Source: a virus
Lineage: Duplodnaviria; Caudoviricetes
Length of the DNA: 64,000 nt
Reading direction: 5' to 3' (one strand)
Virus record (IMG/VR): IMGVR_UViG_3300043252_000005
Location: 1,101-65,100 of that record
The notes beneath the pieces were generated by a model. It did no database searches, was not told the DNA's origin, and saw only the letters and a program-made list of their open reading frames with translations. Every line of letters begins with the position of its first letter. The stretch's first letter is position 1. Of the stretch, positions 26,626 through 59,313 are shown piece after piece. The translations under genes were made by a program, and so were the position numbers.

Positions 26626-28218
26626 ATGGGCCGCCTGCGCCAAGACGAGGTTGATGCCCTTCAGGCGCTCCTGGCTGAGCAGGCACGGCGCCGCACCGAC
26701 GCCAACTACGCCGCCGATCTCGAAAATCGCCAGCAGCTCGCCCGCACGAAACTCTACCAGGCATACCCTGAGACCGGGCCGCTGCGCCGCGAGCTCTACG
26801 GCAAGCACCTGCAGCACTTCGCGGCGAGCGCCATTTTCGGCCAGATCGCCATCATGGGCGGCAACAGATCGGGAAAGACGTTCGGCAACTGCTATCAGAT
26901 CGCCTGCCATATGACCGGCTGGTATCCGTCGTGGTGGCACGGCCGGCGTTTCAGCCGTCCCGTGACCGTGTGGGCCGCCGGCGAAGATGGCAAGTCCGTG
27001 CGCGATTCCCTGCAGGAAACCTATCTCGGCCCGGTCGGCAGCTTCGGAACCGGCCTTATCCCCTACGACAAGCTCGAACGCTACGCGACCCGCAGCGGCA
27101 TCGCCGACGCTATCGACAGCTTCACCGTCAAGCACATCAACGGCGGCCTGTCCCGGCTGGTGTTCAAATCCTACGACCAGAAGCGCGAGGCGTTCCAGGC
27201 GGCCAAGGTCGACATCATCCAACTCGACGAAGAACCACCGATCGCGATCTACACTGAGGCGTTGACGCGGACGCTCTCGACCAACCCGAGCGAGCCTAAT
27301 GGGTTGGTGATAGCTGGCTTCACGCCGCTGAAAGGTCTCTCGGCTGTCGTGCTGTCGTTCCTGCCGGGCGGCGATCGGAAAGAGGGCGAGGTTACTGGCC
27401 CTGAGGGCAACCTCAAGACCGACAAGTACGTGACCTTCTGCGCCTGGGAAGACGCGCCGCATCTGAGCGATGACAGCAAGGCGAAGCTGATCGCCTCCTA
27501 TCAGCCGCACGAACGAGACGCGCGCACCAAGGGTGTGCCGGCGCTGGGATCTGGCGCTATCTATCCGATCCCTGAAGAGGAAATCATCTGCGATCCGATC
27601 CAAATCCCGAATTGGTGGCCGAGGGCCTACGGCATGGACGTGGGTTGGAACCGGACGGCGGTTATCTGGGGCGCAATGGATCCAGAGGCGGATATCCTCT
27701 ACCTCATCGACGAGCATTACCGCGGGCAGGCCGAGCCAGCCATCCACGCAGCTGCCATCAAGGCGCGCGGGCTCTGGATCAACGGTGTGATCGATCCGGC
27801 GGCACACGGGCGCTCGCAGCGCGACGGAGAATCGCTGGCCGGCATCTACAAGGAACTCGGCCTCACCAACCTCATCGCGGCCGACAACAAGGTGACCGGG
27901 CCAGAGGGCGGCATCTACGAGGTGTGGATGCGGCTATCGACTGGCCGCCTCCGCGTGTTCAAGACGCTGCAGAACTGGCGCGCGGAATATCGGATCTACC
28001 GGCGCGACGAGAAGGGCAAAATCGTCAAGGAGAACGACCATCTGCTCGATGCTACCCGATACCTGTGCATGTCCGGCGTGAAGCGCGCCAGCCTGCCGCC
28101 GCATGATAAGCGCTATCCGCAAACGGCGGCGGTGCAGCGCAGCGATTACGACCCCTTCGACGCCTTCCGCCGCGAGATCACGCCGCGGCAGCAGCGCTTT
28201 CCCGGAGATATGTCGTGA
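26626..28218 (+). CDS. terL: Terminase large subunit (P22-like)
   Basis: MGGNRSGKT Walker A, IIQLDEEP, GMDVGWN, KENDHLLDATRY. Confidence 0.96.
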   Translation: MGRLRQDEVDALQALLAEQARRRTDANYAADLENRQQLARTKLYQAYPETGPLRRELYGKHLQHFAASAIFGQIAIMGGNRSGKTFGNCYQIACHMTGWYPSWWHGRRFSRPVTVWAAGEDGKSVRDSLQETYLGPVGSFGTGLIPYDKLERYATRSGIADAIDSFTVKHINGGLSRLVFKSYDQKREAFQAAKVDIIQLDEEPPIAIYTEALTRTLSTNPSEPNGLVIAGFTPLKGLSAVVLSFLPGGDRKEGEVTGPEGNLKTDKYVTFCAWEDAPHLSDDSKAKLIASYQPHERDARTKGVPALGSGAIYPIPEEEIICDPIQIPNWWPRAYGMDVGWNRTAVIWGAMDPEADILYLIDEHYRGQAEPAIHAAAIKARGLWINGVIDPAAHGRSQRDGESLAGIYKELGLTNLIAADNKVTGPEGGIYEVWMRLSTGRLRVFKTLQNWRAEYRIYRRDEKGKIVKENDHLLDATRYLCMSGVKRASLPPHDKRYPQTAAVQRSDYDPFDAFRREITPRQQRFPGDMS

Positions 28219-29223: not shown

Positions 29224-29549
29224 TGGGCTTCATCGCTGACGAACCGATCCACAGCAACGTCGACATAACCGCCGATGAAACCGGCAAGCGATCGGTCTAT
29301 TACACGACGGCATTCGGCATCAAGCTGCTACTCGGCGAGCACATCATCGGTGCGCGCTATACGCACAACGGCCAGGAATTCACGGTTGAACCCACGGGGG
29401 TCGTCAGCGTGCGCGAGATCATGGTGGGATTCACCGATGGCTGGCGCGAGGCGATGCGGGCGAGTGACGACGGGATGGCCGAGCCGCGGCGCCGGGTGAG
29501 CCAGGAAGAGGCAGCGATACCGCTCCATCTCCTCGGATTTCTCCACTGA
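29223..29549 (+). CDS. Hypothetical protein
   Basis: TAATG and TGATG coupling to portal. Confidence 0.6.
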   Translation: MGFIADEPIHSNVDITADETGKRSVYYTTAFGIKLLLGEHIIGARYTHNGQEFTVEPTGVVSVREIMVGFTDGWREAMRASDDGMAEPRRRVSQEEAAIPLHLLGFLH

Positions 29550-31444
29550 TGGCCAAACCTGACCCGCAAGCACCTTCCGAAGCGCCGCCGTGGGCGACGC
29601 AATCGCCGGCATTCCTCGCCCAGCAGCCGCCCGAGATCGAGGTGAAGGCGAAGGAGGGCGAGACGCCGGCCGAGGCGAAAAAGCGCAAGCGCCGTACCGA
29701 AACGATCCAGGCGCACGCCGAGCGGCGGATGAATTGGATGCGCACCATGCGTTGGGTCTGGTGGCGCCAGGCTGGCCTCATCGCGCAGTTCATCGTGCCG
29801 CATCGCTGGCATTTCTTCATTTACGCGAACCGCACCTACCGCGACGGCATCGTCAATCAGGCGATCATCGACAGCAGCGCTACGGATGCGCTCCAGATCT
29901 GCGCCTCCGGCCTCTGGTCCGGTATCACCAACCCCTCGAAGGAGTGGTTCAAGCTTGAGATCGCGCTGCCGTGGCGGAAGCCCACCCAGCAGGAAAAGCT
30001 GTGGCTGAAGGATACGACCGAACGCCTGTTCGCGGCGCTGGCGCAGACCAATTTCTATTCGACCGCAGCGCAGTTGTTCGAGGATATGACAGCGTTTGGC
30101 ACTGCGCCGATGATCATCTACGAGAACGATGAGACCGTCTTCACGTTCTATCTGCCGTGCCCAGGCGAGTTTTTCGTGCAGGTCGGTAGCACGTACACGG
30201 TCGATGTGCTCTATCGCGAATACACGAACACCGTAGCCCAACTGGTGCAGGAGTTCGGCATCGAGCGCATGCCCAGCGTGATCAAAAAGGAATGGATGCG
30301 CGGCGGCGCCTCGATGGACAAAGAGTTCGTCGTTTGCCACGCGATCGAGCCGAACAACGAGTTGATGGAAGACAAGACCGGCGAGAAGTTCTGGCCGGCG
30401 CCGAAGGCCATGCCGTATCGTGAAATCTACTGGATTCGTGCGGCTGGCACTGATGGCGTGATCAGCGTGACCGGCGACCACGAAAAGCCGTTTGTCTGCG
30501 GGCGCTGGAGTAAGGTTTCGAACGATGCCTATGCGCCATCCTGCCCTGGCATGACGGCGCTCGGCGATACGCAGCAGCTGCAGCTCGAGACGCGGCGAAA
30601 GGCGGAATTCATCGAGAAGGGCGTCCGGCCGCCGATGGGCGCCGATGTGAGCCTAGAGAATAAGCCGCTATCGATCACGCCCGGTGGCACGACTTTCATG
30701 GACACGAGTTCCGGCAACATCAAGCGCTACTTCCCGCTCTATGAGCCTGTCCCGCAATGGCTGGCCGGGCTCACCGCCGACATCAAGGAAGTGATCGAGC
30801 GGATCAAGCGGACATTCAAAAACTACGTGTTCAACGCCATCACGGACATGGAAGGCGTCCAGCCGCGGAACGAGCTCGAACTCACCAAGCGCGAGAACGA
30901 ACGCTTGCAGCAGCTCGGGCCGCCGATCAATCTCATCATCGAGGAATTCGCCGGGCCGGCGATCCGCCGCTGCGAAGCGATCATGCGGCGGAAGGGCATG
31001 CTCGAACCGATGCCGCGGTCGCTCCAGGGCGTGCCGCTCAAGATCAAGTACACCGGCATCCTCGAAATCGCCCAGCAGCAGGCGCAGCAGGTAGCGCTTG
31101 AGAACTTCCTGCAGAAGATGGGCGAGGCGAGCCTTGCCGCGATCGAGGCGAAGCTGCCGAGCCCACTGCGCAAGGTGAACCTGGACAAGATCGCCGATCA
31201 CTATGCCGATCTGTGCGGCATCCCGCCCGACGTGATGCGGACGGATGAGGAGGTTGCGCAATTGGATCAGGCCGCGCACCAGGCTATGCAGCAGGCAATG
31301 GCGCCGCAGCAAGCCGAGACAGCGGTGAACGCGGCGCAGACGATGGCGCAGACGCCTACGGGGCCAGGGACGCTTCTGCATGCCATCACAGGTGGCAAGC
31401 TCGGCGGCGGCGCAGCGGCGCCGGCAACGGGGCCTGGGCAGTGA
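29549..31444 (+). CDS. Portal (T7/BPP-1-type head-tail connector)
   Basis: ALQICASGLWSGITNPSKEWF, FGTA, RWSKV...Y...PGMTALGD, ELTKRENERLQQLGP. Confidence 0.93.
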   Translation: MAKPDPQAPSEAPPWATQSPAFLAQQPPEIEVKAKEGETPAEAKKRKRRTETIQAHAERRMNWMRTMRWVWWRQAGLIAQFIVPHRWHFFIYANRTYRDGIVNQAIIDSSATDALQICASGLWSGITNPSKEWFKLEIALPWRKPTQQEKLWLKDTTERLFAALAQTNFYSTAAQLFEDMTAFGTAPMIIYENDETVFTFYLPCPGEFFVQVGSTYTVDVLYREYTNTVAQLVQEFGIERMPSVIKKEWMRGGASMDKEFVVCHAIEPNNELMEDKTGEKFWPAPKAMPYREIYWIRAAGTDGVISVTGDHEKPFVCGRWSKVSNDAYAPSCPGMTALGDTQQLQLETRRKAEFIEKGVRPPMGADVSLENKPLSITPGGTTFMDTSSGNIKRYFPLYEPVPQWLAGLTADIKEVIERIKRTFKNYVFNAITDMEGVQPRNELELTKRENERLQQLGPPINLIIEEFAGPAIRRCEAIMRRKGMLEPMPRSLQGVPLKIKYTGILEIAQQQAQQVALENFLQKMGEASLAAIEAKLPSPLRKVNLDKIADHYADLCGIPPDVMRTDEEVAQLDQAAHQAMQQAMAPQQAETAVNAAQTMAQTPTGPGTLLHAITGGKLGGGAAAPATGPGQ

Positions 31445-33469: not shown

Positions 33470-34333
33470 TTGGCGGATGCCGCATTGACCGAAGAAGCGA
33501 TCAGCACAAGCGCCCCAGCCGCACCGGCCGCCCCAGTGGAGAGCGCGCCTGTTGCAGCTGCTCCCGCCATCGAAGCCCCTGCTGTTGTAGCCGAAGCCGC
33601 TCCCGTTGCGCCTGAGGCGCCGGTTGTTGTTGATCCGGCCGCAGCCGAGGCACCGGCCGCCGAAGCCGTCAAGCATCACAGCGAGACGAAAAGCCTGCTG
33701 TCCGAAGGCCAATTCGACGACGGCGCGAAGAAGCCTGACGCCGAGGCCAAGCCCGAGGGCGACAAGCCGGCCGAGCCTGCGGCGGATGCCTGGCAGCCGA
33801 TCGCATATGAACTCGCCGTGCCGGAAGATATCAAGCTCGATCCGGACGGTATGGAACGCCTCCAGGGCACCTTCAACAAGCTGCGCCTCTCGTCCGATCA
33901 GGCGAAGGATGCGGTCGCCGCCTATTACGACGAGGTTCGCAAGCTCCAGGCTTCTGAAAGCCAGCGTCACAACGACGCGTTTCAGAGCTACCGCAAGGAG
34001 CAGCAGGCGAAGATTATCGCGGACCCGGTGCTGGGCACGAAGGAAGGCTTGCAGACGATCTTCCGCATGCGCGATGCGCTGGTGCCGGAGAGCGATAAGG
34101 CCGACTTCGATGCGATGCTGAACGTCACGGGCGCCGGCGACCATATAGCAACCGCGCGATTGTTTTATCGCGTCAACGAATACGTCGAGCGCCGCATTGC
34201 TGAAGCGCTCCGTCCCTATCAGGAAGCGGCCCCGGCCGCCCCAGGTGCCAAAGCGCCTCCAGGCAACGGGCTCGATCCCAGCTTGCGCGGCATGCGGCGA
34301 GTTCACAGCATGACGACCCCAGGCGCCCGCTAG
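33470..34333 (+). CDS. Capsid scaffolding protein
   Basis: Ala/Pro/Glu-rich N-terminus, YELAVPEDIKLD, NVTGAGDH...RLF; immediately before MCP; TTG start uncertain. Confidence 0.8.
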   Translation: MADAALTEEAISTSAPAAPAAPVESAPVAAAPAIEAPAVVAEAAPVAPEAPVVVDPAAAEAPAAEAVKHHSETKSLLSEGQFDDGAKKPDAEAKPEGDKPAEPAADAWQPIAYELAVPEDIKLDPDGMERLQGTFNKLRLSSDQAKDAVAAYYDEVRKLQASESQRHNDAFQSYRKEQQAKIIADPVLGTKEGLQTIFRMRDALVPESDKADFDAMLNVTGAGDHIATARLFYRVNEYVERRIAEALRPYQEAAPAAPGAKAPPGNGLDPSLRGMRRVHSMTTPGAR

Positions 34334-34361: not shown

Positions 34362-35426
34362 TTGTCCGGAACTGGCGCTTGGCCGACCATCGTCGATTTC
34401 GCGAACCGCACCGATAAAGACGGTACGACCAGCGATATCGCGGAGCTGCTTTCGCAGTGCAACTACATCTACGACGATATGCCGATCAAGCCGGCGTCGG
34501 AGATGGAGGGGCATAAGTTCACCTTCCGCACGTCGGTCCCTTCGGGCTACTGGCTGCCGTTCAATAGCGGCGCTCCTTCCCAGAAGTCGACCACGGCGCG
34601 CTCCGAGATTGGCCTCGGCCGCCTCGCGGATTTGAGCCAGGTTGACAAGGGCCTCGCCCGCATCTCCGGCGATTGGGAAGGCTACCGCGCCACTGAGGAC
34701 GAAGCGTTCCTCATGGGCATGGGCCAGACGATCAGCGGCACGCTCTTCTACGGCAACACGTGGTTCAATCCCGCGCAGTTCATGGGGTTGGCCGGCTTCT
34801 TCAACACGCTGAACACCTCGGCGCAGAACTCGAACAACATCATCGACGGCGGCGGCACTGGCTCGTCCAACGCATCGCTGTGGCTGATCGATTGGGGCGA
34901 GAAGGAAGTCTACGGGCTTGCCCCGCGCGACTCGAAGGCCGGTATCGTCGTCGACAATTACGGCGAGACGTGGCCGGGCCAGGACGCTTTCGGCAACCGC
35001 TTCCCGGCCTACAGCACGTGGTTCGAAATCATCACGGCGATCTGTCCGGAAGATTGGCGCCGCATCGTGCGCTACTGCAACCTCGATGTGACGAGCGCCG
35101 GCCTCGCCGGGCCGACTGCCGCTGACCTGTTCATCGGCATGAACACGATGGTGCAGAAGCTTCCGACCACGCCGCCCGGTGTCACCGGCAACAACAAGTC
35201 GGACGCGCTGCGCAATCCGGGCCAGAACTCCCGCGCGGTCTTCTACTGCGATCGTACCATTCGCCACTTCCTCGATGTCCAGGCACAGCGGCAGCGTAAC
35301 GTGCTGCTGACGAAGGATGACTACGACGGCAAGAGCGTGGAGACGTATCGCAACATCCCGATCAAGACGGTTGACCAGCTCCTCAATACCGAGAGCCGCG
35401 TCACTACCGCCTCCGGCCCGGTCTAA
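34362..35426 (+). CDS. Major capsid protein (Bbp17-like, HK97 fold)
   Basis: GAGGAG SD before TTG; IAELLSQ, GTLFYGN, WRRIVRYCNLDV, YRNIPIKTVDQLLNTE. Confidence 0.9.
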   Translation: MSGTGAWPTIVDFANRTDKDGTTSDIAELLSQCNYIYDDMPIKPASEMEGHKFTFRTSVPSGYWLPFNSGAPSQKSTTARSEIGLGRLADLSQVDKGLARISGDWEGYRATEDEAFLMGMGQTISGTLFYGNTWFNPAQFMGLAGFFNTLNTSAQNSNNIIDGGGTGSSNASLWLIDWGEKEVYGLAPRDSKAGIVVDNYGETWPGQDAFGNRFPAYSTWFEIITAICPEDWRRIVRYCNLDVTSAGLAGPTAADLFIGMNTMVQKLPTTPPGVTGNNKSDALRNPGQNSRAVFYCDRTIRHFLDVQAQRQRNVLLTKDDYDGKSVETYRNIPIKTVDQLLNTESRVTTASGPV

Positions 35427-39285: not shown

Positions 39286-39683
39286 TGTCCGCGAAAGAGC
39301 GCATGTCGAAGGTCTACGCCGATAAGGCGGTCAAGAAGGAGCCTCCAAAGGAGGAGCCCAAATCCGAGAAGACCGAAAAGCCGGCCGAGGGCAAGAAGGA
39401 AGGCGGCGGTGCCGAGGCCGCGCCCAGCACCGCCAAGGAAGATATCGGCGCCAAGCATGGCGAGGCGCGCACGGCGATGCACAAGCGCCATTCGGCCGAA
39501 CGCCGCGACGCGCACGGCAATCACAAAGAGGTGATGGACCGGATGCATGCGCGCCACGAAAAGGAGCATCAGCAGCTCGCTCAGCAGCAGCAGGAAGAGA
39601 TGGCCGCGCAGGAAGCTGCGGGCGCCGCTCTGGCCGGTGGCGCTGGCGGCGGTGCGGCGGCGCCGGCTGGGGAGCCTGCGTGA
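39282..39683 (+). CDS. Lys/Glu/His-rich disordered protein
   Basis: ATGA coupling; AAGGAG SD. Confidence 0.65.
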   Translation: MMSAKERMSKVYADKAVKKEPPKEEPKSEKTEKPAEGKKEGGGAEAAPSTAKEDIGAKHGEARTAMHKRHSAERRDAHGNHKEVMDRMHARHEKEHQQLAQQQQEEMAAQEAAGAALAGGAGGGAAAPAGEPA

Positions 39684-40033
39684 TGTTTCAGAAGTTGGTC
39701 GACCTCGCTTACGACGATGAAGACGAATACGAGATGGCGAAAGCCTGCTCTGGTCCGATTCTGGCCGATCAGCCGAAATATCCCCGGGGCCTTCAGATCA
39801 CGCTGACGGACAAGGAATTCAAGAAGCTGGCCGAGGCCGGCGACGATTTCGACATGGACGACGCCATGATCGGCGGCGAGGTGCACGGCTTCTTCATGGC
39901 GCGGATCACCGGCGTGAACATGAACGAGACCGAAGGCGGCTCGAAATGCTCGATCACGCTGCAGATCCAGCAACTCGGCATCGAGAGCGAAGACGCTGAG
40001 GACCGCGAAGCGATGAAAGGGGCGAAGAAATGA
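39680..40033 (+). CDS. Acidic virion protein (possible capsid staple type)
   Basis: YPRGLQITLTDKEFKKL...SITLQIQQLGI. Confidence 0.55.
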   Translation: MMFQKLVDLAYDDEDEYEMAKACSGPILADQPKYPRGLQITLTDKEFKKLAEAGDDFDMDDAMIGGEVHGFFMARITGVNMNETEGGSKCSITLQIQQLGIESEDAEDREAMKGAKK

Positions 40034-40440: not shown

Positions 40441-43086
40441 ATGCGTAAGGCTTTGATGGTGATAGCGGCGGTCTTCATGGCCGCCGTTTCGTTCGTAGGG
40501 CTGCCGGCGGCGGCTCTCGCGCAAGGCTCTGTCGGCCAGGTCGGCGCGATTGTTCCGGGCGATCCTGCCATCTGGGCGCAGAACGGCTACGTCATGGACG
40601 GCGGCCCGGCGAGCGGCACCGGCCAGGGGAACGGCATCGGCCAGTTCCTCATGCAGTCGCGCGGCGGCAGCGTCGCTCCTTCCTCGGCAAATGGCTTCGG
40701 CCTCGGCCCGTTCCAGGCCAACGGCTCGGGCCAGTTCAACTCCCATGATTGCCGCTATGCCGGCACGCCGCAGTCGCCGGCCGGCTCCTATTTCCTCTGC
40801 TTCGATCCCGACACGACGGTCGGCAGCTTCTCGGGCGGCCTGCTCTCCTACGGTTCGATCGGCGTAGCGCCGCAGCTACCGCTCGCCTTCGATGTCAATG
40901 GCGTGCTCTACCAGTTTCCGTTCAGCGGAGCGGGTAGCGGCAATGTCATCGGTTCCGGCCCGACGACGGTTGGCGGCGCCGCATGCTTCGGCAACACGCT
41001 CGGCACGCTGATCGGAGCCTGCGCCAACCCGTTCGGCAACGTCATCGCAAGCGGCTCGGTATCGAGCGGCCAGTGCGCCGTCTTCACCGGCACCGGCTAT
41101 AACGTGCTCGGCGGCACGTGTGGATCAGGCGGCGGCGGTAATGTCACCGGCAGCGGGCCGACGACGGTCGGGCAGCCGTCCTGTTTTGGTAACGTGCTCG
41201 GCACGTCGATTAGCGCGTGCGGTAGCGGCATCATCGGCAACGTCTTTGCAAGTGGCGCATCGATAAGCGGCGACTGCCTCGTGTCGAACGGCTCCGGGCC
41301 GCCGGCCTATAATGTCGTCTTCGGTGCCTGCGGCTCCGGCGGCGGCGGTAATGTCACGGCAAGCGGCACGGCTGTCAGCGGCAATTGCCTGGTGTCCGAT
41401 GGCTCTGGGCCGCCGGCCTACAATGTCACATTCGGCACGTGCGGCAGCGGCGCCACCGGCGGCCCGTGGCAAGTCGAGACGACGAACGGCGTCAGCGTTG
41501 CGGCATTCACCTCGTTCCTGAACCTGCCGCAGAACCCGAGCTTTGCCACGTCGCCGACCGGCAACCCGACCGGCGGCACGCTGCTCAGCACCATTTCGAC
41601 GCTGAATGTGCAAGGCACGACGGCGAACGCCAGCAACCGCGAATTCCTGGTAGGCTTCGGCCTCACCAGCACTCTCGGCAATGGTGTCGCCAACAACAAC
41701 GGCGACAAAGTGACGCTCTACCTGGGCGCGGTCGGCAACAGCGGCACGGGAGATCTCTGGGCGTTCAATCCGCTGCTGACGCAATCGGCCGGCTCCGGCA
41801 CCTATAACGCCCAGGTCAACGAGACGGATCTCAACAACTTCAACGCCGATCGCGGTGGCACGGATGGCCCGAGCGGCTACCCTTCGCATGTCGCTGTCGG
41901 CATGTCCGTCTCTGGTGCCTCCGATTTCCACGGCTACACCAACACGGCCGGCATCGCGATCGACTCTTTTGGCGGGCCATCCGTCAACGTGCCGCTCTGG
42001 GCGCATGGGATTTCGTTCAATGGCTTCTACAAGTGGAACGCGATTGCCGACTACGCTCAAGCGCCAACTTTTCTGGCGCTTTTCGGTGGTCATTCTTACG
42101 GTATCGATTGTTCTCAGGCTTCTATCACGTCGGGGTGCCTGAAGCTTCAGAACGGCATCAACGGCGGCATCATCGGCCAGGAGAGTTCGTTCCCGGCCAA
42201 TGCGAAATTGCTGCGCTACGACGGCACGAACATTTACTTCGCCGAGACGGGTGTCGGCGGCGTCTTCATTGCCGCACCGCTGACGCCATCGTCAGCGAAT
42301 ACCTATGCGATCGGCGGCCCGTCGACACGTTTTGCGACGATGTACGCTAATGCATTCGATGCATCCGTGAACATGTTCGTTAACGGCACGCAGGTCGCGA
42401 CCGCCTCCGGCATCGCCGGACAGTGCGCGCAGTTCACATCGGCGCAGATGATCGTCGCAACCGGCTCGGCCTGCGGCTCGGGCGGCGGCGGTTCCGTCAC
42501 CTCTGTCTCGGCCGGCACCAACATGACGGTGAGCCCGACGACAGGCGCCGTCGTCGTGAACTTGTCGGCCACGCCGAACGGCCTCACGAGCCTCGGAGTC
42601 GGCACGTCGACAGTCACATCCACGATCACGGATAACGGCACGCTCGGCGTCTCCGGTGCCGCGTCGTTCTCGAGTGCCGTCGATCTGGCTGGCTCCGTCG
42701 AGATGAACGGCCTGATCAGCGGGACGCCGGCAAACGGCCTCTGCCTCACGAGCGCGTTCCAGGTTGTCGCGTGCGCGGTGCCGGGCGGCGGCGTGACATC
42801 GGTCACATCCGGCAATGGCGACATCTCCGTCAGCCCGACGACTGGTGCTGTGGTCATCACGCTCAATCCCACGCCGATCCTGACCGCCTTGACGGTGGGC
42901 ACTGTCACGAACATCGCGACGATCACGGACAACGGCACAATGGCTGTCTCGGGAGCTGCGGCGTTCAATAGCTCATCATCGTTCGCCGGCTCCGTCCAAA
43001 TGACCGGTTTGACCGGCGGCACGCCGACGAAGTATGCTTGCTTCGACAGCACAGGGTTGCTCGTCGCCTCTACTTCAGCTTGCTAA
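40441..43086 (+). CDS. Fibre-like protein with signal peptide and paired-Cys repeat modules (881 aa)
   Basis: MRKALMVIAAVFMAAVSFVGLPAAALA|QGS; repeated GNVxxSG...C-x(9-17)-C-GSGG; duplicated C-terminal ~95-aa unit. Confidence 0.75.
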   Translation: MRKALMVIAAVFMAAVSFVGLPAAALAQGSVGQVGAIVPGDPAIWAQNGYVMDGGPASGTGQGNGIGQFLMQSRGGSVAPSSANGFGLGPFQANGSGQFNSHDCRYAGTPQSPAGSYFLCFDPDTTVGSFSGGLLSYGSIGVAPQLPLAFDVNGVLYQFPFSGAGSGNVIGSGPTTVGGAACFGNTLGTLIGACANPFGNVIASGSVSSGQCAVFTGTGYNVLGGTCGSGGGGNVTGSGPTTVGQPSCFGNVLGTSISACGSGIIGNVFASGASISGDCLVSNGSGPPAYNVVFGACGSGGGGNVTASGTAVSGNCLVSDGSGPPAYNVTFGTCGSGATGGPWQVETTNGVSVAAFTSFLNLPQNPSFATSPTGNPTGGTLLSTISTLNVQGTTANASNREFLVGFGLTSTLGNGVANNNGDKVTLYLGAVGNSGTGDLWAFNPLLTQSAGSGTYNAQVNETDLNNFNADRGGTDGPSGYPSHVAVGMSVSGASDFHGYTNTAGIAIDSFGGPSVNVPLWAHGISFNGFYKWNAIADYAQAPTFLALFGGHSYGIDCSQASITSGCLKLQNGINGGIIGQESSFPANAKLLRYDGTNIYFAETGVGGVFIAAPLTPSSANTYAIGGPSTRFATMYANAFDASVNMFVNGTQVATASGIAGQCAQFTSAQMIVATGSACGSGGGGSVTSVSAGTNMTVSPTTGAVVVNLSATPNGLTSLGVGTSTVTSTITDNGTLGVSGAASFSSAVDLAGSVEMNGLISGTPANGLCLTSAFQVVACAVPGGGVTSVTSGNGDISVSPTTGAVVITLNPTPILTALTVGTVTNIATITDNGTMAVSGAAAFNSSSSFAGSVQMTGLTGGTPTKYACFDSTGLLVASTSAC

Positions 43087-43097
43087 GGATCAACCAC

Positions 43098-43355
43098 ATG
43101 CGGATCATCATCGGAATTGGCCTGCTGCTCATCCCGTGCGCCGCGCTCGCGCAAAGTGCTGCCCCAGCGGCGGCCGATTATAATTCCCAAGCGCTCAGCC
43201 AGCGTTACATGCAGGAACTCAACAACAGCATTCAGTGGCAGGCGCGCGCGCTCGCCGACGAGGATCAGTTGAAGGCGCTGCAGAAGCAGATCGACGACGA
43301 GAAGAAGGCGCCCGCGCCGGCTACTGCGCCTCCGGCTGCCGATCCGCCGAAGTAG
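43098..43355 (+). CDS. Signal-peptide-bearing short coiled-coil protein (possible fibre chaperone)
   Basis: MRIIIGIGLLLIPCAALA|QSAAP; AAGGA SD. Confidence 0.65.
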   Translation: MRIIIGIGLLLIPCAALAQSAAPAAADYNSQALSQRYMQELNNSIQWQARALADEDQLKALQKQIDDEKKAPAPATAPPAADPPK

Positions 43356-43364
43356 GATATTTTC

Positions 43365-43961
43365 ATGGGGAACAGCCCGACCGGACCCGCGGATATCGTC
43401 AATCGAGCAATCGTGTTGATGGGCGGGTTCAATTCCAATGTTCCTCTGACCGGCGTGCCGCCGATCTTCGACGGCACGCCACTCGGTCTCGCAGCTGGCG
43501 CTGCCTACGGCGGTGTCGTGCAGACGGTCGGCAAGGCGTGTGGATGGGACTTCGCGCGCAACGTCGCGGTGCTCGTGCTCAGCGGCAACAGCCCGCCTTA
43601 TGGCTGGTTCGCAGAATACCTCTATCCGACGAACGGCATCGAAGTCCGGCAGGTTCTCCAGTCCGTCGCGGCACAGGTCGCGTCCGATCCAAACAACCCG
43701 GCGCCGCAACTCTGGCAGACCGCTAACAACGTCGTGGCCGGCGCCACGCGCAAGGTCATCTGGTGCAATCTCGTGAACGCGCTGGCGGTCATCTCCGGTC
43801 AGCCAATTGAATCGGCATGGGATGCGGGATTTACCGAGGAAGTCGTGCGCCTTCTGGCCTCCGACCTCGCGATGGCGGTCGCTGGCAGGCCGGAGACGGG
43901 CCAACTCGAATATGAACGATCGAACAATGCCGCCCAGATCTTCCACGGGCGGGAGGGTTGA
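43365..43961 (+). CDS. Tail adaptor (T7 gp11-like) paralogue 1
   Basis: PADIVNRAI, WDFAR, EYLYPTN, WDAGFTEEV. Confidence 0.75.
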   Translation: MGNSPTGPADIVNRAIVLMGGFNSNVPLTGVPPIFDGTPLGLAAGAAYGGVVQTVGKACGWDFARNVAVLVLSGNSPPYGWFAEYLYPTNGIEVRQVLQSVAAQVASDPNNPAPQLWQTANNVVAGATRKVIWCNLVNALAVISGQPIESAWDAGFTEEVVRLLASDLAMAVAGRPETGQLEYERSNNAAQIFHGREG

Positions 43962-43964
43962 TCC

Positions 43965-44531
43965 GTGGCCAACGTGCTCGTCCATCCGGAAGACTTCGTC
44001 AACGCAGCCCTCGGTCGCATCGGCTACAAGCTGCGGATCGGCTCGTTCTTCGACGGCAGCGAAGCGAGCAAACTGGCGCTCGACATCTACGGCCAGACGC
44101 GCGACCAACTGCTTCGCCTGAAGGATTACGATTTCGCGCAAAAGATTGCCGCCGCTGTCGTGGCGCCGGGCGCGGTGCCAACGCCGATCTGGCAGTTTCA
44201 ATACCTCTATCCGACAGACTGCGTGCGGCTGCGCGACATGTACGCGCCCGGCTATGACACGAACGATCCGCTGCCGAACCGCTGGACGCGCGACACGGCG
44301 CTGATCGGCGGCGTCATGACGGAGATCATCTTCGCCAATATCTCGCCGGCCATGCTGGTCTACACCGAACAGGTGACGGACCCGAGCCTCTGGGATGAGG
44401 GCTTCGGCGAGACGATGATTGCATCGTTGGCCCGGCGGCTCGCGCCGGCCCTCGCGTCGTTGGACGTGGCGAAGCTCGAGGCGCAGGATGAAGCGACGAT
44501 GATCCAGGCGACCGGGGATATTGTCGGATGA
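43965..44531 (+). CDS. Tail adaptor paralogue 2
   Basis: PEDFVNAAL, YDFAQ, QYLYPTDC, WDEGFGETM. Confidence 0.8.
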   Translation: MANVLVHPEDFVNAALGRIGYKLRIGSFFDGSEASKLALDIYGQTRDQLLRLKDYDFAQKIAAAVVAPGAVPTPIWQFQYLYPTDCVRLRDMYAPGYDTNDPLPNRWTRDTALIGGVMTEIIFANISPAMLVYTEQVTDPSLWDEGFGETMIASLARRLAPALASLDVAKLEAQDEATMIQATGDIVG

Positions 44532-45151
44532 CGATCCTCACCTCGATCCAAAGCCCGGAAGACGCGATCAACGCGGCCCTTATCCGCATCGGCTTCACGC
44601 GCCGCATCGATCAGATCTATGAAGGCACGCCGGCCGCGCGCGCCGCGGTGCTGATCTACGGCCAGACGCGCGACGATATCCTGCGGACAGGCGACTATCG
44701 ATTTGCCGTGCGGCAGGCGGCGTTGGTCAAGTTGAAGGCGGCCCCAGCTGGCGGCTACAGCCCAATGACGCCATGGAGCGCCGCGCAGTACCCCGCCGTG
44801 CCATGGATCTATTCCTATGCCTATCCGATCGATTGCTTGCGCCTGCTGTCGCTGCGCACTGCGCCGATGATTGTGCCGGTGTCGAGCCCGCGCGCCGTCA
44901 CATGGTCAATCGACAATGACAACAGCTACACGCCGCCGCAGAAAGTTATCCTCACGAACCTCGGCGGCGCGCTGGCAACATACACGGCGCGTGTCACGGA
45001 TTTGGCGCTGTGGGACGCCGCGGCCGTGGAAGCTTTGATCGATGCTTTGGCGACGAACCTCGCGCCGGCCCTTGCCAATCTGGATTCGCAGAAGATCGAG
45101 GAAGCCGCCGAAGCCCGCGCGGCGAACACGGCCGAGCATCTGGAAGGATGA
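44528..45151 (+). CDS. Tail adaptor paralogue 3
   Basis: PEDAINAAL, YRFAV, SYAYPIDC, WDAAAVEAL. Confidence 0.8.
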   Translation: MTILTSIQSPEDAINAALIRIGFTRRIDQIYEGTPAARAAVLIYGQTRDDILRTGDYRFAVRQAALVKLKAAPAGGYSPMTPWSAAQYPAVPWIYSYAYPIDCLRLLSLRTAPMIVPVSSPRAVTWSIDNDNSYTPPQKVILTNLGGALATYTARVTDLALWDAAAVEALIDALATNLAPALANLDSQKIEEAAEARAANTAEHLEG

Positions 45152-45154
45152 GCC

Positions 45155-46126
45155 ATGACCAGCCCGGCCGATCTCGCGAATAGGGCTCTTGACGCCGCCG
45201 GCGCTGATTTCACGATCGGCGATATCGAAGAAGGCGGCAAGGTCGCGGAGATCATCCGCCGCGTCTATGTGCCGGCCCGGCAGCAGCTTCTCCGCACGGC
45301 GCGCTGGCCCTTCGCGCGGCGCCAGGCCGACCTCGCCCTTCTCGCCGATCGCTTCAGCCAGACGCCGGACCTGCCGAACCAAGTCATCTGGCCGTGGCGC
45401 TTCGAGTACCAATACCCGATCGACTGCCTGCAAATCCGCTTCGTGCCGGCTGACGAATGCCGGCCGGTCGAGATTTCGGCACCCCCGAACGCCACGCCGG
45501 GCGGCAATTTCGTGAACGTGAACGTCGGCGCAAACTACGTGCTGCCAGGCGTCAACACGATCGGCTCGCGCACGCAGCACCACACGCAGCTGCGCCAGGG
45601 GCGTTTCCTCGTCGCGGTCGATCCGAACTATCCGGGCCTCGTCGGCGCCATCACGGACAATAGCCAGAACCCGTCATTCGGCAGTGTCCAAGGTGTCGGG
45701 CCGACCGGGCGCACCGTGATCCTAACCAATGTGCGACGCGCGCAGGCGGTCTATACGATGGATGTCGAGTATCCGGACGAGTGGGATGTGTCGTTTCAGG
45801 AGGCGTTTGTCGCCTACCTGACCAACCTCATCGCGCTCCCGGTTGCCATCGCGCTCGATAAGGACAAAAAGTTCGGCCTCGAGATGGAGGCGCGGGCAAT
45901 GGCGAAAGCGAAGGGTCTCATCGGGCAGGCGCGCGTGGCGGCGGCGAACGAAGGACAGACGACCACTGACAGCACGCCCGATTGGATACATGGCCGCTTC
46001 CGCGGCGGCATCCCATTCGGCGCTGGCGGCTTCGGCGATGGTTTCGGCTTTTCGGGCAGTGGAAGCGGCGGTATCTACAGCGAGGAATGCGGGCCGACAG
46101 TCTTCGGGAACGGGAGCACCTGGTAA
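45155..46126 (+). CDS. Tail adaptor paralogue 4 (with insertions and Gly-rich tail)
   Basis: PADLANRAL, WPFAR, EYQYPIDC, WDVSFQEAF. Confidence 0.85.
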   Translation: MTSPADLANRALDAAGADFTIGDIEEGGKVAEIIRRVYVPARQQLLRTARWPFARRQADLALLADRFSQTPDLPNQVIWPWRFEYQYPIDCLQIRFVPADECRPVEISAPPNATPGGNFVNVNVGANYVLPGVNTIGSRTQHHTQLRQGRFLVAVDPNYPGLVGAITDNSQNPSFGSVQGVGPTGRTVILTNVRRAQAVYTMDVEYPDEWDVSFQEAFVAYLTNLIALPVAIALDKDKKFGLEMEARAMAKAKGLIGQARVAAANEGQTTTDSTPDWIHGRFRGGIPFGAGGFGDGFGFSGSGSGGIYSEECGPTVFGNGSTW

Positions 46127-49100
46127 GTGGCGATCCCCTTCGGCCGCTGGAACTTCGCCGCCGGTGAATTGGCGCCGGGCCTCTGGGGTCATATCGATTT
46201 CGCGAAGTACCAGATCGGTCTCTCGACCTGCCGCAATGCCTTCATATCGTACCGTGGCGGGGCATATAGCCGCGCCGGAACGCACTTCGTCGGCTACTCG
46301 AAGCAGACTCAAGTCGGCACGCTGCCGCCGCGGCTGATCACATTCCAGTTCAATATCAACCAAGGCATCTGCATCGAGGCCGGGCACCATTATTTCCGCT
46401 TCATCATCGACGGCGCTTTCGTGCTGGAGCCAGAGATCACGATCACGAATATCACGCAGTCGAGCCCGGCCGTCGTCACCGCGGCGAACAGCTACACGAA
46501 CGGCGATTGGGTGTTTCTCGACGATATCACCGGCATGACGGAGTTGAACGGCCGGACAGCCATCATCGGCAATGTCACGCCGATGCATTTTTCTCTCTTC
46601 GACGTGTTCAGCCAGCCGATCGATACGACGAGTTTCCCGGTCTATGCCGGCGGCGGCGCAGCGGCGCGCCTCTACACGCTGGCGACGCCATGGGCCGAGC
46701 AGGATTTGCAATGGCTGAAATGGACGCAGAGCGCCGACGTGATGAGTATCTGCTGCTGGAACCAGCAGACGAACATCGGGCCGGGCGGCGATGTCTCCTA
46801 TCCGGCCTACGACCTGAAGCGCATCACGGACACGAATTGGACGCTCACGCGGTTCTCGGCCACAACTTCGGTGCAGCCGCCGAACGGCCAAGTCATCACG
46901 GCCAGCAATGTGAACACCAGCGCGCAGGCTCCCCCGACCGAATATTCTGCCGTCGTGACCACCGTCAACCAGCTTACCGGCGAGGAAAGCCAGGCATCCG
47001 AGGTCCTGACATTCTATGGCTCCGTGGACATTTCCACGGTCGCCGGCTCCATCAAGATCACCTGGGCGCCGCAGCCGGGCCAAGTCTATTACAACGTCTA
47101 TTTTGCCCAAGCCGCGGTACTGACGCACGTGCCGCCAGGCTCGCTCTATGGCTACACCGGCACGGCTTTCGGCAACGAATTCGTGAACACCAATATCCAG
47201 CCGGATTTCAATCAGGTGCCCCCGCTGCATCTAGATCCGTTCGAGCCGGGCCAGATTTTGTTCGTCATCGTGACGAATGGCGGATCGAGCCTGACCAGCG
47301 TCACGGCGACGATCACGACTTCGACCGGATTGGGCTTCGCTGGATATCCGATCATCGTCGGCGGTGTGCTGACAGCATACATCGTGACCAACGGCGGCAA
47401 GTTCTATGAGCCTGGCGACGCGATCGTTTTCAATGGCGCGGCGTTCGCCACCGGCGCCATCAGCTTTTCGGTCAACCCGTCGAACGGCGACACGATCACG
47501 CTGAACGGCGTCGTATGGACTTTCGTCACCAGCGGCGCCGCCGGCAGCCAGACGAATATCCAGGCGACCTTGAGCCTTACCATGGCGCAGATCGCGAACG
47601 ATTTGAACGCGTCCGTCAATCCGAGCCTCGCGGTCGCGTCCTACATCGCCGAGCCGATCGGCAACGCCACGAATATCACGATCACCTATGACACAGCAGG
47701 GCCGGCGGGCAACAGCTACACGCTGGCGGCATCGGCCGGCACGCCATCCGGGCCAACCTTGACCGGCGGCGGTGGGGCTGGCTCGCTCGCAGGCACGATC
47801 GATATCGGCCCGCAGACGGGCACCTACCCCAGCGCCGTCCAGTATTTCCAACAGCGTCGGTTCTACGCCGCGACGCCGAACCAGCCAGATACCTATTTCG
47901 CGAGCCAGCCGGGCGCGTTCAACAATTTCGATTTTCGCATCCCGACGATCGACAGCGACGCGATTACCGGCAGCCCGTGGAGCGTGCAGGTGAACGGCAT
48001 CCAATGGATGGAGCCGATGCCGGGCGGCCTCGTCGTGCTCACCGGCCAGCAGGCTTGGCAGATCGGCGGCGCGGGTTCGAGCCCGCTCCAGCCGCAGGCG
48101 ATCACGCCGGCGAACCAGCAGGCCGAGGCGCAAGCTTTCAACGGCTGCAGCGCGTACATGCCGCCGATCCGCAAGGATTACGATATCGTCTATCTCCAGG
48201 CGCTCGGCTCCATCTTCCGCGACCTGTCGTACAACATCTATGCCGGCATCTATACCGGGGTCGATATCACCTATCTCTCGAGCCATCTCTTCACCGGCCT
48301 GCAAATGCGCGAGGCGGCATGGTGCGAGGAGCCGTATAAGATCATCTGGGTAACCCGGCAGGACGGCATCCGCCTGTCGTTCACCTTTTTCAAAGAGCAG
48401 GAGGTTTTGGCATGGGCACGCCACGACACTCAGGGCCTCACATGGTCTGTGACCTCCGTCATCGAGCCGCCGGTGGATGCGCTCTATCTGGCGACACAGC
48501 GCGCGATCAACTCGCAAAACAGCTTCATGATCGAACGCGAAGACAACCGGACCTGGGACGGCGTCGAAACCTGCTGGTGCGTCGATGCTGGATTGTCGTT
48601 GTCGCAACCCACACCAGCAGCAAATCTGACGATCGTGCCGATCGACGGGCTTGGATCGATTACCGCGATCACGAATTTTGACGGCGGCAACAGCTACTCG
48701 CCTGGCACGACGCTTTCGGTGCTAGACCCGACCGGCGCCGGGGCAACATTTACGCTGACGGTCGTCAACGGTGTGATACAGCCGCCCGTCATCGTTACCG
48801 GCGGCCAGTTATATACGAACCCGAAGCTGATCTTTAACGATCCGCAGGGCATCGGCGCCTACGCGACAGGCACCGCCGTCATCAGCAACGCGACAACGCT
48901 GATCGCCGACGCCGCGGTATTCTCGCCGGCCTCAATCGGGCAAGTCGTGCGCGGCGCCTCCGGCATCGCCGTCATCGAGACGTTCCTCGATAGCAAGCAC
49001 GTGATTGCCAACGTCACGCAGCCGTTCCAGACGACGCAGGATAATTCGAATTTCGTCGTCGTGCAGAACGGCCAGTGGACGATGACGCAGCCGGTGGACG

Positions 49101-49681
49101 AGGTGTTTGCGCCGCACCTCACCGGCGCCACGATTACCGGCATCGCGGATGGCCAAGTCATTCCGCCAACCGTCGTCGGGCCGGGCGGCTTGATCACGCT
49201 TGCCAGTTCTGCCAGCCAAATCACCGTTGGCCTGCCGTTTCAGGTGCAGATCCAGACGCTACGGCCGGAAGGTGGGCAACCCACGACGCAAGGGATGCGC
49301 AAGAAGATCGGTGCCGTGACGGCGCGCGTCGAGAACAGCCTCGGTTTCGAGATCGGTGTCAACCAGCCGGACGGCTCCGCGCAGTCGCCTTCGCAGATCG
49401 TTGCGAACTGGACCGGCATGACGCCCGTGCCGGCGCCTGGCAAGCCGATCGGGCTGCCGCCCTATCAGTCGAACATCGTGCCGCTATTCACGGACGATGT
49501 GCGTGTGCCGCAGGCGAGCGGCTGGGACAAGCACGGCCAGGTCGCCTTGCAGCAGAATCAGCCGCTCCCGCTCCAATTGCTCGCTGTCGTGACCGAGTTC
49601 CTTGAGGGCGATCTGCCCGACGCCGCCGTATCGCCGCGGCCGCCCGGCGCGCAGGCCGGCAAGCAGGGCTGGACGGTCTGA
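46127..49681 (+). CDS. Tail nozzle (tubular protein B, T7 gp12 / P22 gp10-like)
   Basis: NFAAGELAP...CRNAFISYRGGAYSRAG, YPSAVQYFQQR, AWARHDT; E1-FCCH-like and beta-sandwich insertions. Confidence 0.9.
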   Translation: MAIPFGRWNFAAGELAPGLWGHIDFAKYQIGLSTCRNAFISYRGGAYSRAGTHFVGYSKQTQVGTLPPRLITFQFNINQGICIEAGHHYFRFIIDGAFVLEPEITITNITQSSPAVVTAANSYTNGDWVFLDDITGMTELNGRTAIIGNVTPMHFSLFDVFSQPIDTTSFPVYAGGGAAARLYTLATPWAEQDLQWLKWTQSADVMSICCWNQQTNIGPGGDVSYPAYDLKRITDTNWTLTRFSATTSVQPPNGQVITASNVNTSAQAPPTEYSAVVTTVNQLTGEESQASEVLTFYGSVDISTVAGSIKITWAPQPGQVYYNVYFAQAAVLTHVPPGSLYGYTGTAFGNEFVNTNIQPDFNQVPPLHLDPFEPGQILFVIVTNGGSSLTSVTATITTSTGLGFAGYPIIVGGVLTAYIVTNGGKFYEPGDAIVFNGAAFATGAISFSVNPSNGDTITLNGVVWTFVTSGAAGSQTNIQATLSLTMAQIANDLNASVNPSLAVASYIAEPIGNATNITITYDTAGPAGNSYTLAASAGTPSGPTLTGGGGAGSLAGTIDIGPQTGTYPSAVQYFQQRRFYAATPNQPDTYFASQPGAFNNFDFRIPTIDSDAITGSPWSVQVNGIQWMEPMPGGLVVLTGQQAWQIGGAGSSPLQPQAITPANQQAEAQAFNGCSAYMPPIRKDYDIVYLQALGSIFRDLSYNIYAGIYTGVDITYLSSHLFTGLQMREAAWCEEPYKIIWVTRQDGIRLSFTFFKEQEVLAWARHDTQGLTWSVTSVIEPPVDALYLATQRAINSQNSFMIEREDNRTWDGVETCWCVDAGLSLSQPTPAANLTIVPIDGLGSITAITNFDGGNSYSPGTTLSVLDPTGAGATFTLTVVNGVIQPPVIVTGGQLYTNPKLIFNDPQGIGAYATGTAVISNATTLIADAAVFSPASIGQVVRGASGIAVIETFLDSKHVIANVTQPFQTTQDNSNFVVVQNGQWTMTQPVDEVFAPHLTGATITGIADGQVIPPTVVGPGGLITLASSASQITVGLPFQVQIQTLRPEGGQPTTQGMRKKIGAVTARVENSLGFEIGVNQPDGSAQSPSQIVANWTGMTPVPAPGKPIGLPPYQSNIVPLFTDDVRVPQASGWDKHGQVALQQNQPLPLQLLAVVTEFLEGDLPDAAVSPRPPGAQAGKQGWTV

Positions 49682-50163
49682 TGGACGGCTCCGGCTGGCT
49701 CCCAGCCCCTTCCGGCCGCATTGTGACCGTCGAAGCGAGGATTGCCCATATCCGCATGCTGGTGCCGGCGCTGCGCGATGCCGACCGGGCCGAGATCGAG
49801 GCCCAAGGGCAGACGCCCCGCCATCTGCTGTTCCGCCTCTGGCGCTGGTCGGTGATCCGGCGCACGGTCTTCGTCGATGGTGAGATCGCTGCGATGTGGG
49901 GATGCGAGGGCTCGCTGCTTGGCCGCGTCGCTGCGGCTTGGCTCTATACGACGCCGGCAGCCGCCCGCGTGCCGATCGGCTTCCTGAAAGCGGCGCAAAG
50001 TGGTATCCATCAGATGAGACAGCACTTCCCGGTGCTGATCAGCGATGTCGATGCCAGCTACGAAAGGTCGATCCGGTTCATGCAGCTTCTCGGCTTCCAT
50101 GTCGGCGAATCCTTTGAGCTTCCGAGCGGCGCGCTGTTCCGCCGGCTGACGTTGGGGGAATGA
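49681..50163 (+). CDS. GNAT-like protein (T7 gp13-like position)
   Basis: LRDADRAEIEA...IAAMWG...RSIRFMQLLGF. Confidence 0.75.
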   Translation: MDGSGWLPAPSGRIVTVEARIAHIRMLVPALRDADRAEIEAQGQTPRHLLFRLWRWSVIRRTVFVDGEIAAMWGCEGSLLGRVAAAWLYTTPAAARVPIGFLKAAQSGIHQMRQHFPVLISDVDASYERSIRFMQLLGFHVGESFELPSGALFRRLTLGE

Positions 50164-50741
50164 TGCCGCACTTTCACAAGATCGGCACCGGCTGCAACGT
50201 TGCCCCGCTCGTCGCCCAAATAGGCGAGCACCCGGAACTCTGGAACCAGCACAATGTGCGCAAGGTGTCGGCCGGGTCGCCGCATGCCGAGATGGACGAC
50301 ATATGGCTGCGCTACAATCGATATGAGCGGTTCTGCGGCGATCGGTCGACGTTCAACGACGAGCACGTACCCGTCTGGTATCCGGCGGCGCGCGTGCTGA
50401 CCGCGGCGCGGCCGATCCTCTTCGGCATCATGGCCGCAGTCCAGGGCGAGATGCTATGCGGCGTCTTCATCACGCGCATCCCGCCGGGCGGCAAGATCCT
50501 GCGGCATATCGACCGCGGATGGCACGCCGAGGCGACGGACAAATTCTACGTGGCACTCAAGAGCCCGGCCGGCTCAGCCTTCCATTGCGATCACGATGGT
50601 GAAGCAGAGAGCATCTACCCGGAAATCGGCGATATCCATATGTTCGACAATCGCAAGCTGCATTGGGTCACCAACGATAGTGACCACGAGAAAATGACGC
50701 TGATCGTCGCCATAAAAACTGAAATGTTCGGGAGGGTTTGA
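50160..50741 (+). CDS. 2OG-Fe(II) oxygenase, aspartyl/asparaginyl beta-hydroxylase-like
   Basis: ITRIPPGGKILRHID, FDNRKLHWVTN...TLIV. Confidence 0.88.
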   Translation: MMPHFHKIGTGCNVAPLVAQIGEHPELWNQHNVRKVSAGSPHAEMDDIWLRYNRYERFCGDRSTFNDEHVPVWYPAARVLTAARPILFGIMAAVQGEMLCGVFITRIPPGGKILRHIDRGWHAEATDKFYVALKSPAGSAFHCDHDGEAESIYPEIGDIHMFDNRKLHWVTNDSDHEKMTLIVAIKTEMFGRV

Positions 50742-59086: not shown

Positions 59087-59152
59087 CCGGGCGAGACAGA
59101 CCCCCGCATGTTGTGATATCTTGCGCGCGCCTTCCTATCGGGAGCACGATCG

Positions 59153-59311
59153 ATGGTCGCCGCAGCACATTCGCCACGCCAGGCCGTAAAGCCGGCACCG
59201 CAGCGCACGCCGCACGCCAAGCCAGTCCAGCGCAGCTACGAAAAGCCGTCCCTCGCCAAGCATTCCCTGGGTGTCGCTGGCCCGAAGCACGAGGCCAAGC
59301 AGGAGCCGTAG
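59153..59311 (+). CDS. 52-aa basic Pro/Lys/His-rich peptide
   Basis: Hand translation MVAAAHSPRQAVKPAPQR...KQEP; GGAG SD. Confidence 0.5.
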   Translation: MVAAAHSPRQAVKPAPQRTPHAKPVQRSYEKPSLAKHSLGVAGPKHEAKQEP

Positions 59312-59313
59312 CC

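Follow-up and report, generated by a model that had tools for sequence, protein, structure and literature searches.

Four diverged head-to-tail adaptor paralogues in an uncultured podovirus suggest a tail barrel of stacked rings

The Carin-1 connector and the LME-1 adaptor are dodecameric adaptors that lie between the portal and the hexameric nozzle in solved virions (PMC13730344, PMC12407071). In both phages one gene makes one dodecameric ring, and T7 likewise has a single adaptor gene (gp11, tail tubular protein A) and a single ring. Two departures from this plan have been described. The crassvirus crAss001 builds five stacked dodecameric rings, 23 nm in all, from four paralogous ring proteins, one pair of which is a recent duplicate; its portal-proximal ring gene, gp43, adjoins the muzzle gene gp44, many crassviruses have three such genes, and multiple ring genes have been called a defining feature of the group (PMC10172136). 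In Pa223, one adaptor forms two coaxial rings, joined through the C-terminal 14 residues, which extend upward in each ring, either toward the portal or toward the overlying ring (bioRxiv 10.1101/2025.06.11.659172). Apart from this single-gene double ring, our literature search found no other described paralogous adaptor rings in podoviruses beyond the crassviruses. Here we analyze a stretch of 64,000 nucleotides (the window) of IMG/VR virus record IMGVR_UViG_3300043252_000005, positions 1,101 to 65,100, which is nearly the whole of a 65.1-kb record rated complete by CheckV, and which carries four tandem adaptor genes. Most such phages have one adaptor gene; with four diverged copies under selection, this phage probably builds a longer tail of stacked rings, a design known until now only from crAss-like phages of the gut.

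The array occupies positions 43365-46126 of the window and consists of four intact open reading frames (ORFs) on the plus strand, immediately 5' of the nozzle gene. We refer to their products, in gene order, as P0001 to P0004 (Table 1). Successive genes are separated by 3 nt, by a 4-nt overlap (ATGA, between P0002 and P0003) and by 3 nt, and the stop codon of P0004 (ending at 46126) abuts the start codon of the nozzle gene (46127). In BLASTP comparisons, P0002 and P0003 share 39% identity (E=6e-35), P0001 and P0002 28% (E=9e-16), and P0003 and P0004 32% (E=6e-11), a similarity that, judged from these alignments, lies far above chance. The four-way alignment spans the whole of the cores and contains 24 invariant columns, including P8, D10, N13, A15, F63, A64, Y85, Y87, P88, I132, N135, W152 and D153. 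A profile search of the whole 65.1-kb record found exactly these four copies and no fifth. The initial annotation had described four consecutive, intact and tightly packed paralogues with a set of shared motifs; the ORFs, the BLASTP matches and the alignment agree with this description, and all the listed motifs are present as invariant columns.

The same annotation had labelled the genes gp11-like adaptors, and this label was supported both by profiles for all copies and by the predicted fold of the two modelled ones. All four proteins match the PHROG tail family phrog_394 ('tail protein') with E-values of 2e-8 to 8e-27, while none has a relevant Pfam match at E<=1, and the Pfam model for tail tubular protein A (T7 gp11) was not matched. 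A joint profile of the four proteins, searched against the Protein Data Bank (PDB), matched the Carin-1 connector (gp37 in PQ119497; 8CK1 chain E) with E=1e-21 and the LME-1 adaptor (9EFK) with E=2e-8; profiles built from single orthologous clades, defined below, also match 8CK1_E, with E=5e-17 and 7e-23, and likewise the LME-1 adaptor. Models of P0003 and P0004 were computed with AlphaFold2 (AF2) from alignments of 47 and 38 orthologues, respectively, and P0001 and P0002 were placed by profile only. The mean predicted local distance difference test (pLDDT) score was 84 for P0003 and 72.6 for P0004, with low confidence in the latter at residues 101-146, 163-171 and 265-310. In each model, a beta domain (the beta-dock) is inserted into a helix bundle. 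For both, the top Foldseek match is 8CK1_E (E=8e-11 for P0003 and 2e-12 for P0004), followed by the LME-1, PhiM1, HRP29, A4, T7 gp11, KP32 TTPA (tail tubular protein A), SU10, GP4 and Pa223 adaptors and the crAss001 barrel chains. Structure alignment (VIA) of P0003 with the Carin-1 connector gave Z=16.6 and a root-mean-square deviation (rmsd) of 3.0 Å over 170 residues; the Z score was 12.0 against the LME-1 adaptor, 8.4-8.6 against T7 gp11, 7.6 over 161 residues against the crAss001 ring 7QOJ_F (Foldseek E about 1e-2) and 6.5 against the Pa223 adaptor, and the T7 gp11 structures 6R21, 7BOX and 7EY7 together span Z 8.1-8.6. The family profile retrieved no crAss001 chain from the PDB at E<=10, and the likeness to crAss001 is at the level of the fold only. 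By profile and predicted fold, all four proteins are assigned to the podovirus dodecameric head-to-tail adaptor family of the T7 gp11 / Carin-1 connector type, and their nearest relatives are Carin-1-like connectors, not T7 gp11.

The Carin-1 connector and the LME-1 adaptor are therefore the closest solved relatives by profile and fold. The locus has in common with them the helix bundle and beta-dock, the N-terminal D-x-x-N-x-A-L helix and the W-x-x-x-Y-x-Y-P motif, as well as the position of an adaptor gene directly upstream of the nozzle gene, which is the same in related loci. P0004 also shares the C-terminal AR..NEG..W..R tail motif, and it adds a beta-dock insertion of ~80 residues and a Gly-rich extension. 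The main difference is in number: Carin-1 and LME-1 have one gene for one dodecameric ring. The present locus has four genes, and three of the four proteins are missing the long C-terminal tail found in the solved members and in all the single-copy relatives examined. With T7 gp11 the locus has in common the fold class, the gene order and, judged from sequence and models, the role of linking portal and nozzle, but T7 again has a single gene.

To place the copies among their relatives, we scanned IMG/VR with the four-protein alignment, which yielded 60 loci, and then searched the six-frame ORFs of these loci with a profile. About 50 loci carry tandem arrays. Most of the complete arrays have three genes; four are found in the window and in loci L005 and L009, five in L031, and one each in the distant loci L055-L064. 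A maximum-likelihood tree of 127 distinct proteins resolved three orthologous clades that track gene position, here called first, mid and last, with support of 98, 99 and 100, respectively, by the Shimodaira-Hasegawa-like approximate likelihood ratio test (SH-aLRT). The clade labels change far fewer times on the tree than in shuffles. P0001 belongs to the first clade, P0002 and P0003 to the mid clade and P0004 to the last. The first clade, P0001 included, has a conserved C-terminal motif of its own (..FExxGExR..), and it has NG where the YxYPxDC motif has DC. Every additional copy belongs to the mid clade, which was re-duplicated at least twice: one event belongs to the lineage that includes the window, L005 and L009, the other to L031, two copies of which are sisters (support 96). 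Because the extra copies all fall inside the mid clade, the tree indicates that this phage clade ancestrally had three genes and that the fourth gene of the window is a re-duplicated mid paralogue. Thus the presence of four paralogues holds, but the four are not ancestral, as the fourth is a lineage-specific duplicate.

A second scan, with single-copy adaptors as the query, gave 510 relatives, and the best 80 of these 510 loci hold exactly one copy within ±5 kb. The 'first' type alone forms 160 clusters at E<=1e-10 in a large protein collection, and their longest contigs are repeatedly 62-66 kb. Cultured phages are distant: the closest portal has about 30% identity at best, the array had no match in a nucleotide search of phage records, tblastn of P0004 against the same records found none, and tblastn of P0003 gave single-copy adaptors alone, from epsilon15-like, Pelagibacter and other podoviruses, with 25-39% identity. 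Two scans of bacterial and archaeal genomes for prophage relatives returned nothing but one short contig of a metagenome-assembled genome (MAG). No fused multi-domain form of the mid paralogue was found among longer proteins, which is weak evidence. Taken together, the sequence comparisons argue that the array is not a recent accident and that the multiplication arose independently in the Carin-1-like adaptor family, after its split from many single-copy lineages.

Some relatives vary further within the array. In one sub-lineage the 'first'-clade paralogue is ~301-318 aa long, as against ~189 aa, with an extra domain of ~110 residues (Table 1). In three loci, additional genes amounting to 0.9-1.5 kb separate the first paralogue from the mid one (L013:8577-9444, L014:1751-2700 and L033:3041-4541); the insert of L033 consists of ORFs of 333 and 162 aa, and the inserted ORFs of L013 and L033 had no Pfam match.

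The paralogues differ most clearly at the C-terminus. We measured tail length as the number of residues after the conserved core (profile column 176). It is 20-22 residues in the first clade, 20-41 (median 21) in the mid clade and 76-87 in the last clade, compared to 39-65 in the single-copy relatives, including the Carin-1 connector. In P0001-P0003 the chain ends just past the helix bundle. When the last clade and the single-copy adaptors were compared profile to profile, they aligned through the tail region (probability 100%, E=2e-43); both have the tail consensus AR(I/A)xDxNE..D..DW(I)..R, and the Carin-1 C-terminus carries the same signature (ARDQNEG...W.R). In P0004, the Gly-rich linker leads to a conserved peptide, WDS..F.DGSAY (consensus), with an aromatic residue last. 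In A4 and T7, a C-terminal 'embracing' tail inserts between portal subunits (PMC12002296). Because its tail is homologous to that of the single-copy adaptors and of Carin-1, P0004 is best read as the orthologue of the canonical single-copy adaptor, and it alone among the paralogues keeps the putative portal hook. P0004 is also set apart by its beta-dock insertion, which is conserved in the last clade (N118, P131, P148, D156, N158 and Y159 are nearly invariant) and has low pLDDT in the monomer model. The four proteins share a common core, as had been supposed, but they are not four equivalent adaptors.

This asymmetry could mean that only P0004 forms an axial ring, and that the first and mid paralogues serve elsewhere, as a peripheral collar, a fibre-hub layer, a plug or a transient assembly factor. 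The portal-hooking tail is kept by P0004 alone, the P0004 gene is the only one to abut the nozzle gene, as the adaptor gene does in single-copy relatives and in Carin-1, and accessory collar proteins are known around the adaptors of A1002, DEV and GP4 (PMC13730344). Those collars, however, are jelly-roll proteins and not adaptor paralogues (PMC13730344). The short copies keep the whole core of helix bundle and beta-dock, including the invariant N-terminal helix motif of ring-forming adaptors, and wherever several rings of the adaptor fold have been solved, they are stacked on the axis. A peripheral placement is without precedent among proteins of this fold. On balance, we consider a peripheral or transient role for the short copies unlikely, though it deserves serious attention.

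We estimated the ratio of nonsynonymous to synonymous substitution rates (dN/dS) by the Nei-Gojobori method, using pairs with unsaturated dS and high identity. The values were 0.07-0.17 in the first clade, 0.025-0.18 in the mid clade and 0.007-0.17 in the last clade. Between the window and its nearest relative, L005, they were 0.22, 0.13, 0.16 and 0.17 for copies 1 to 4, in that order, with dS near saturation for copy 1. A median of ~0.4 over distant pairs was set aside on account of saturated dS. These ratios indicate that all copies are under purifying selection; relaxed selection, which had been named beforehand as refuting the proposal of a multi-ring tail, was not seen in any of them, with dN/dS well below 1. 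The same data bear on the possibility that the copies are redundant or alternative adaptors, one per virion or condition, or decaying duplicates. Tandem duplicates can be transient, which is a general argument with nothing specific to this locus. Against it stand three clades in fixed order over ~50 loci and at least 160 protein clusters, dN/dS well below 1 in all three clades with all frames intact, and the fact that the short copies are without the portal hook that an alternative adaptor would need. We therefore regard redundancy or decay as highly improbable. Three paralogues kept in a fixed order, under purifying selection and across a large clade argue instead that each has a necessary role of its own.

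The arrangement that we favor, with a probability of roughly 0.55, is that the paralogues form coaxially stacked rings, with P0004 nearest the portal and the number of mid rings setting the length of the barrel. In this model, each paralogue would form a separate coaxial dodecameric ring, lengthening the channel between portal and nozzle. P0004 would be the portal-proximal ring, its tail hooking the portal and its enlarged beta-dock providing a candidate docking surface; the tail-less first and mid paralogues would supply the rings that follow P0004, and the stack would end in the hexameric nozzle. P0004 is placed next to the portal because only P0004 has the long C-terminal tail, and this order fits the fact that the ancestral adaptor gene has stayed next to the gene for the nozzle. 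Re-duplication of the mid gene, giving 3, 4 or 5 genes, would change the barrel length in steps of one ring. If each gene gave one ring and the rings scaled as in crAss001, at ~4.6 nm each, the four of this phage would make a barrel of roughly 18 nm. Tiers for the docking of fibres, a further part of the initial proposal, are hinted at only by the enlarged beta-dock of P0004 and by a fibre-like gene for an 881-aa protein just upstream of the array.

Several observations favor stacking. Known members of the family form 12-fold rings on the tail axis, and the gain or loss of a whole ring needs no change of stoichiometry across arrays of 3, 4 and 5 genes. Moreover, adaptor-fold rings stack in two solved precedents, crAss001 and Pa223. 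The rings R1-R5 of crAss001 (gp43, gp40, gp35 and gp34; 7QOJ) come, as here, from several paralogous adaptor-fold genes, and the evolutionary pattern of three conserved paralogues with a recent extra duplicate is the same. The adaptor gp63 of Pa223 (9NWI) shows that such rings can stack coaxially outside the crassviruses, although there one gene gives two rings by adopting two conformations, whereas here the paralogues have diverged and one carries a long C-terminal tail. The virus lineage also differs from crAss001, its portal belonging to PF12236, its capsid protein to PF20911 and its gene order to the T7/epsilon15/Carin-1 type; the genes here are strictly tandem, with 28-39% identity, whereas those of crAss001 are scattered, with 15-31%; and stacking has been solved for crAss001. 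For the present phage, we infer coaxial stacking between portal and nozzle from the variation in copy number and from precedent. The multi-ring tail of the initial annotation is, in this sense, the best available explanation of ancient, conserved copies whose number varies among 3, 4 and 5.

The variation in gene number also bears on an arrangement in which the paralogues share a single heteromeric ring of 12 subunits, which would be specialized to bind the portal, to dock fibres and to manage the 12-to-6 change of symmetry. The 12-fold adaptor of T7-like tails carries a hexameric nozzle and six fibres, with two adaptor subunits touching each subunit of the nozzle (PMC12002296). Paralogues could hard-wire such an alternation, and the tight translational coupling of the genes would suit a fixed stoichiometry. 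But 3, 4 and 5 genes would give 4-fold, 3-fold and impossible tilings of 12, respectively, none of which matches the 6-fold nozzle. In addition, only one third or one quarter of the subunits would hook the portal, and no heteromeric adaptor ring occurs among the solved tails that we compared. A mixed ring of this kind appears improbable.

Some points weigh against coaxial stacking. The first and mid paralogues are without the long C-terminal tail by which known adaptors attach upward, and the gene order (first, mid, mid, last, nozzle) suggests the reverse order of rings. The structure models cover two of the four proteins, and the clade is known from its genes alone; ring formation by the short paralogues and their presence in virions are predictions from these genes. 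The basal branching of the three clades with respect to the nearest single-copy lineage is poorly supported (30). A complex prediction for the four paralogues, one chain each and with P0004 as the partner, scored 0.01 against a mark of 0.32 and returned no contacts, a result that speaks neither for nor against stacking.

The genomics is solid and the parallel with the crassviruses is striking; the architecture we infer. If the rings do stack, the barrel would be an independent and convergent version of the multi-ring barrel of crAss001. The same solution as the crAss-like barrel would then have arisen independently inside the T7/Carin-1-type adaptor family, in a clade where gene number shifts between close relatives, and adaptor duplication would be a general and easily evolvable route to a longer tail in short-tailed phages. 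The split between a tailed 'anchor' and tail-less 'spacers' would give a concrete handle on how ring order is specified, and the tail length of podoviruses in metagenomes might be predicted simply from the number of adaptor genes. More tentatively, since the odds are in our estimate somewhat against it, this widespread uncultured clade of ~62-66-kb podoviruses, which is unrelated to the crassviruses, may have independently evolved a multi-ring barrel out of the ordinary adaptor, in which one portal-hooking anchor ring is retained and recurrently duplicated tail-less spacer rings act as a modular ruler that fits the length of the tail to the host envelope, and possibly also its cargo space or fibre tiers.

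The right half of the window is a podovirus structural operon on the plus strand (Table 1), whose portal, of the T7 gp8 family, is the partner that the adaptor tail would be expected to bind. Internal virion (ejection) proteins follow 3' of the nozzle gene; among them are one of 753 aa, peptidase/lysozyme-like, and one of 1726 aa. The clade has kept the gene order around the array. In multi-copy relatives, the capsid gene and the array are set apart by ~8 kb of additional genes that are absent from the single-copy relatives; in the latter, the adaptor begins about 0.8-1 kb past the capsid gene.

Table 1. Features of the window, with their positions and, in the last row, the longer 'first'-clade paralogues of related loci.
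Feature	Position	Strand	Remarks
Large terminase	26626-28218	+	
Portal, T7 gp8 family	29549..31444	+	PF12236, E=3e-101
Protease/scaffold-like gene	33470-34333	+	
Major capsid protein, epsilon15-gp7-type	34362-35426	+	PF20911
881-aa protein, possible fibre or spike (weak)	40441..43086	+	conserved N-terminus, variable remainder
P0001	43365..43961	+	198 aa; 'first'-clade adaptor paralogue
P0002	43965..44531	+	188 aa, GTG start; 'mid'-clade paralogue, one of two mid-type copies in this lineage
P0003	44528..45151	+	207 aa; 'mid'-clade paralogue
P0004	45155..46126	+	323 aa; 'last'-clade paralogue
Beta-dock insertion of P0004	45449..45694	+	~80 residues, about 99-180; candidate docking surface
C-terminal tail of P0004	45941..46123	+	residues ~263-323; AR..NEG..DW..R motif, Gly-rich linker, conserved terminal peptide
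Nozzle, tail tubular protein B type	46127..49681	+	1184 aa; phrog_376, E=1e-130
Longer 'first'-clade paralogues	L048:2010-2924		P0043, P0050, P0051, P0057, P0097, P0099, P0101, P0119

The proteins of the extra block have no family matches, save a 117-aa protein (39680-40033, plus strand) that matches PF21628, 'Gp10-like major coat protein-like', with E=1e-7; part of the block, at least, may by this match be concerned with capsid decoration rather than with the tail. Relatives share the N-terminal ~200 residues of the 881-aa protein (29-58% identity) and differ over the remainder, a pattern usual for a fibre or spike with a virion-anchoring N-terminus and thus consistent with a possible role of this kind. 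The protein has no sequence match in PHROG, Pfam or the PDB, and its look-alikes in the Atlas are fibre families, all with scores below 0.9 (weak leads). Between this gene and P0001 lies an ORF of 85 aa (43098-43355, plus strand), with a hydrophobic N-terminal leader ending in LLIPCAALA, which resembles a signal peptide or lipobox; the rest of its product is charged and coiled-coil-like. Pfam gave no match, and from its sequence features the protein might be a spanin-like or exclusion lipoprotein.

The nozzle protein, at 1184 aa, is longer than the 830-aa protein of Carin-1 and has extra N-terminal domains; its residues 114-179 form a small beta-barrel resembling E1_FCCH, with 28.8 bits, just below the cut-off of 29.5. 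Among the internal virion genes, a 193-aa protein (50160-50741, plus strand) matches the Pfam Asp/Arg beta-hydroxylase family PF05118 with E=3e-6 and 27.6 bits (cut-off 22.6), and a beta-hydroxylase-type enzyme is unusual within a podovirus ejection-protein cluster.

In the early region, the minus strand encodes a RecT-like annealing protein and an exonuclease (at 7379-8425 and 9084-9980); genes for a DNA methyltransferase (12696-14057) and for a DnaB-like helicase (16681-18222) are on the plus strand. Of the ten early-region ORFs scanned, none was recognized as a phage RNA or DNA polymerase. A GapR-like label for the gene at 11351-12100 was dropped, as it had no Pfam match at E<=0.001, and we make no claim of an alphaproteobacterial host. 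At the other end of the window, the guanine-plus-cytosine (GC) content of positions 60001-62000 falls to 0.515, compared to about 0.63 elsewhere. This segment covers the 3' part of an 878-aa gene (59113-61749) and the sequence beyond it, and the drop may mark a horizontally acquired receptor-binding module.

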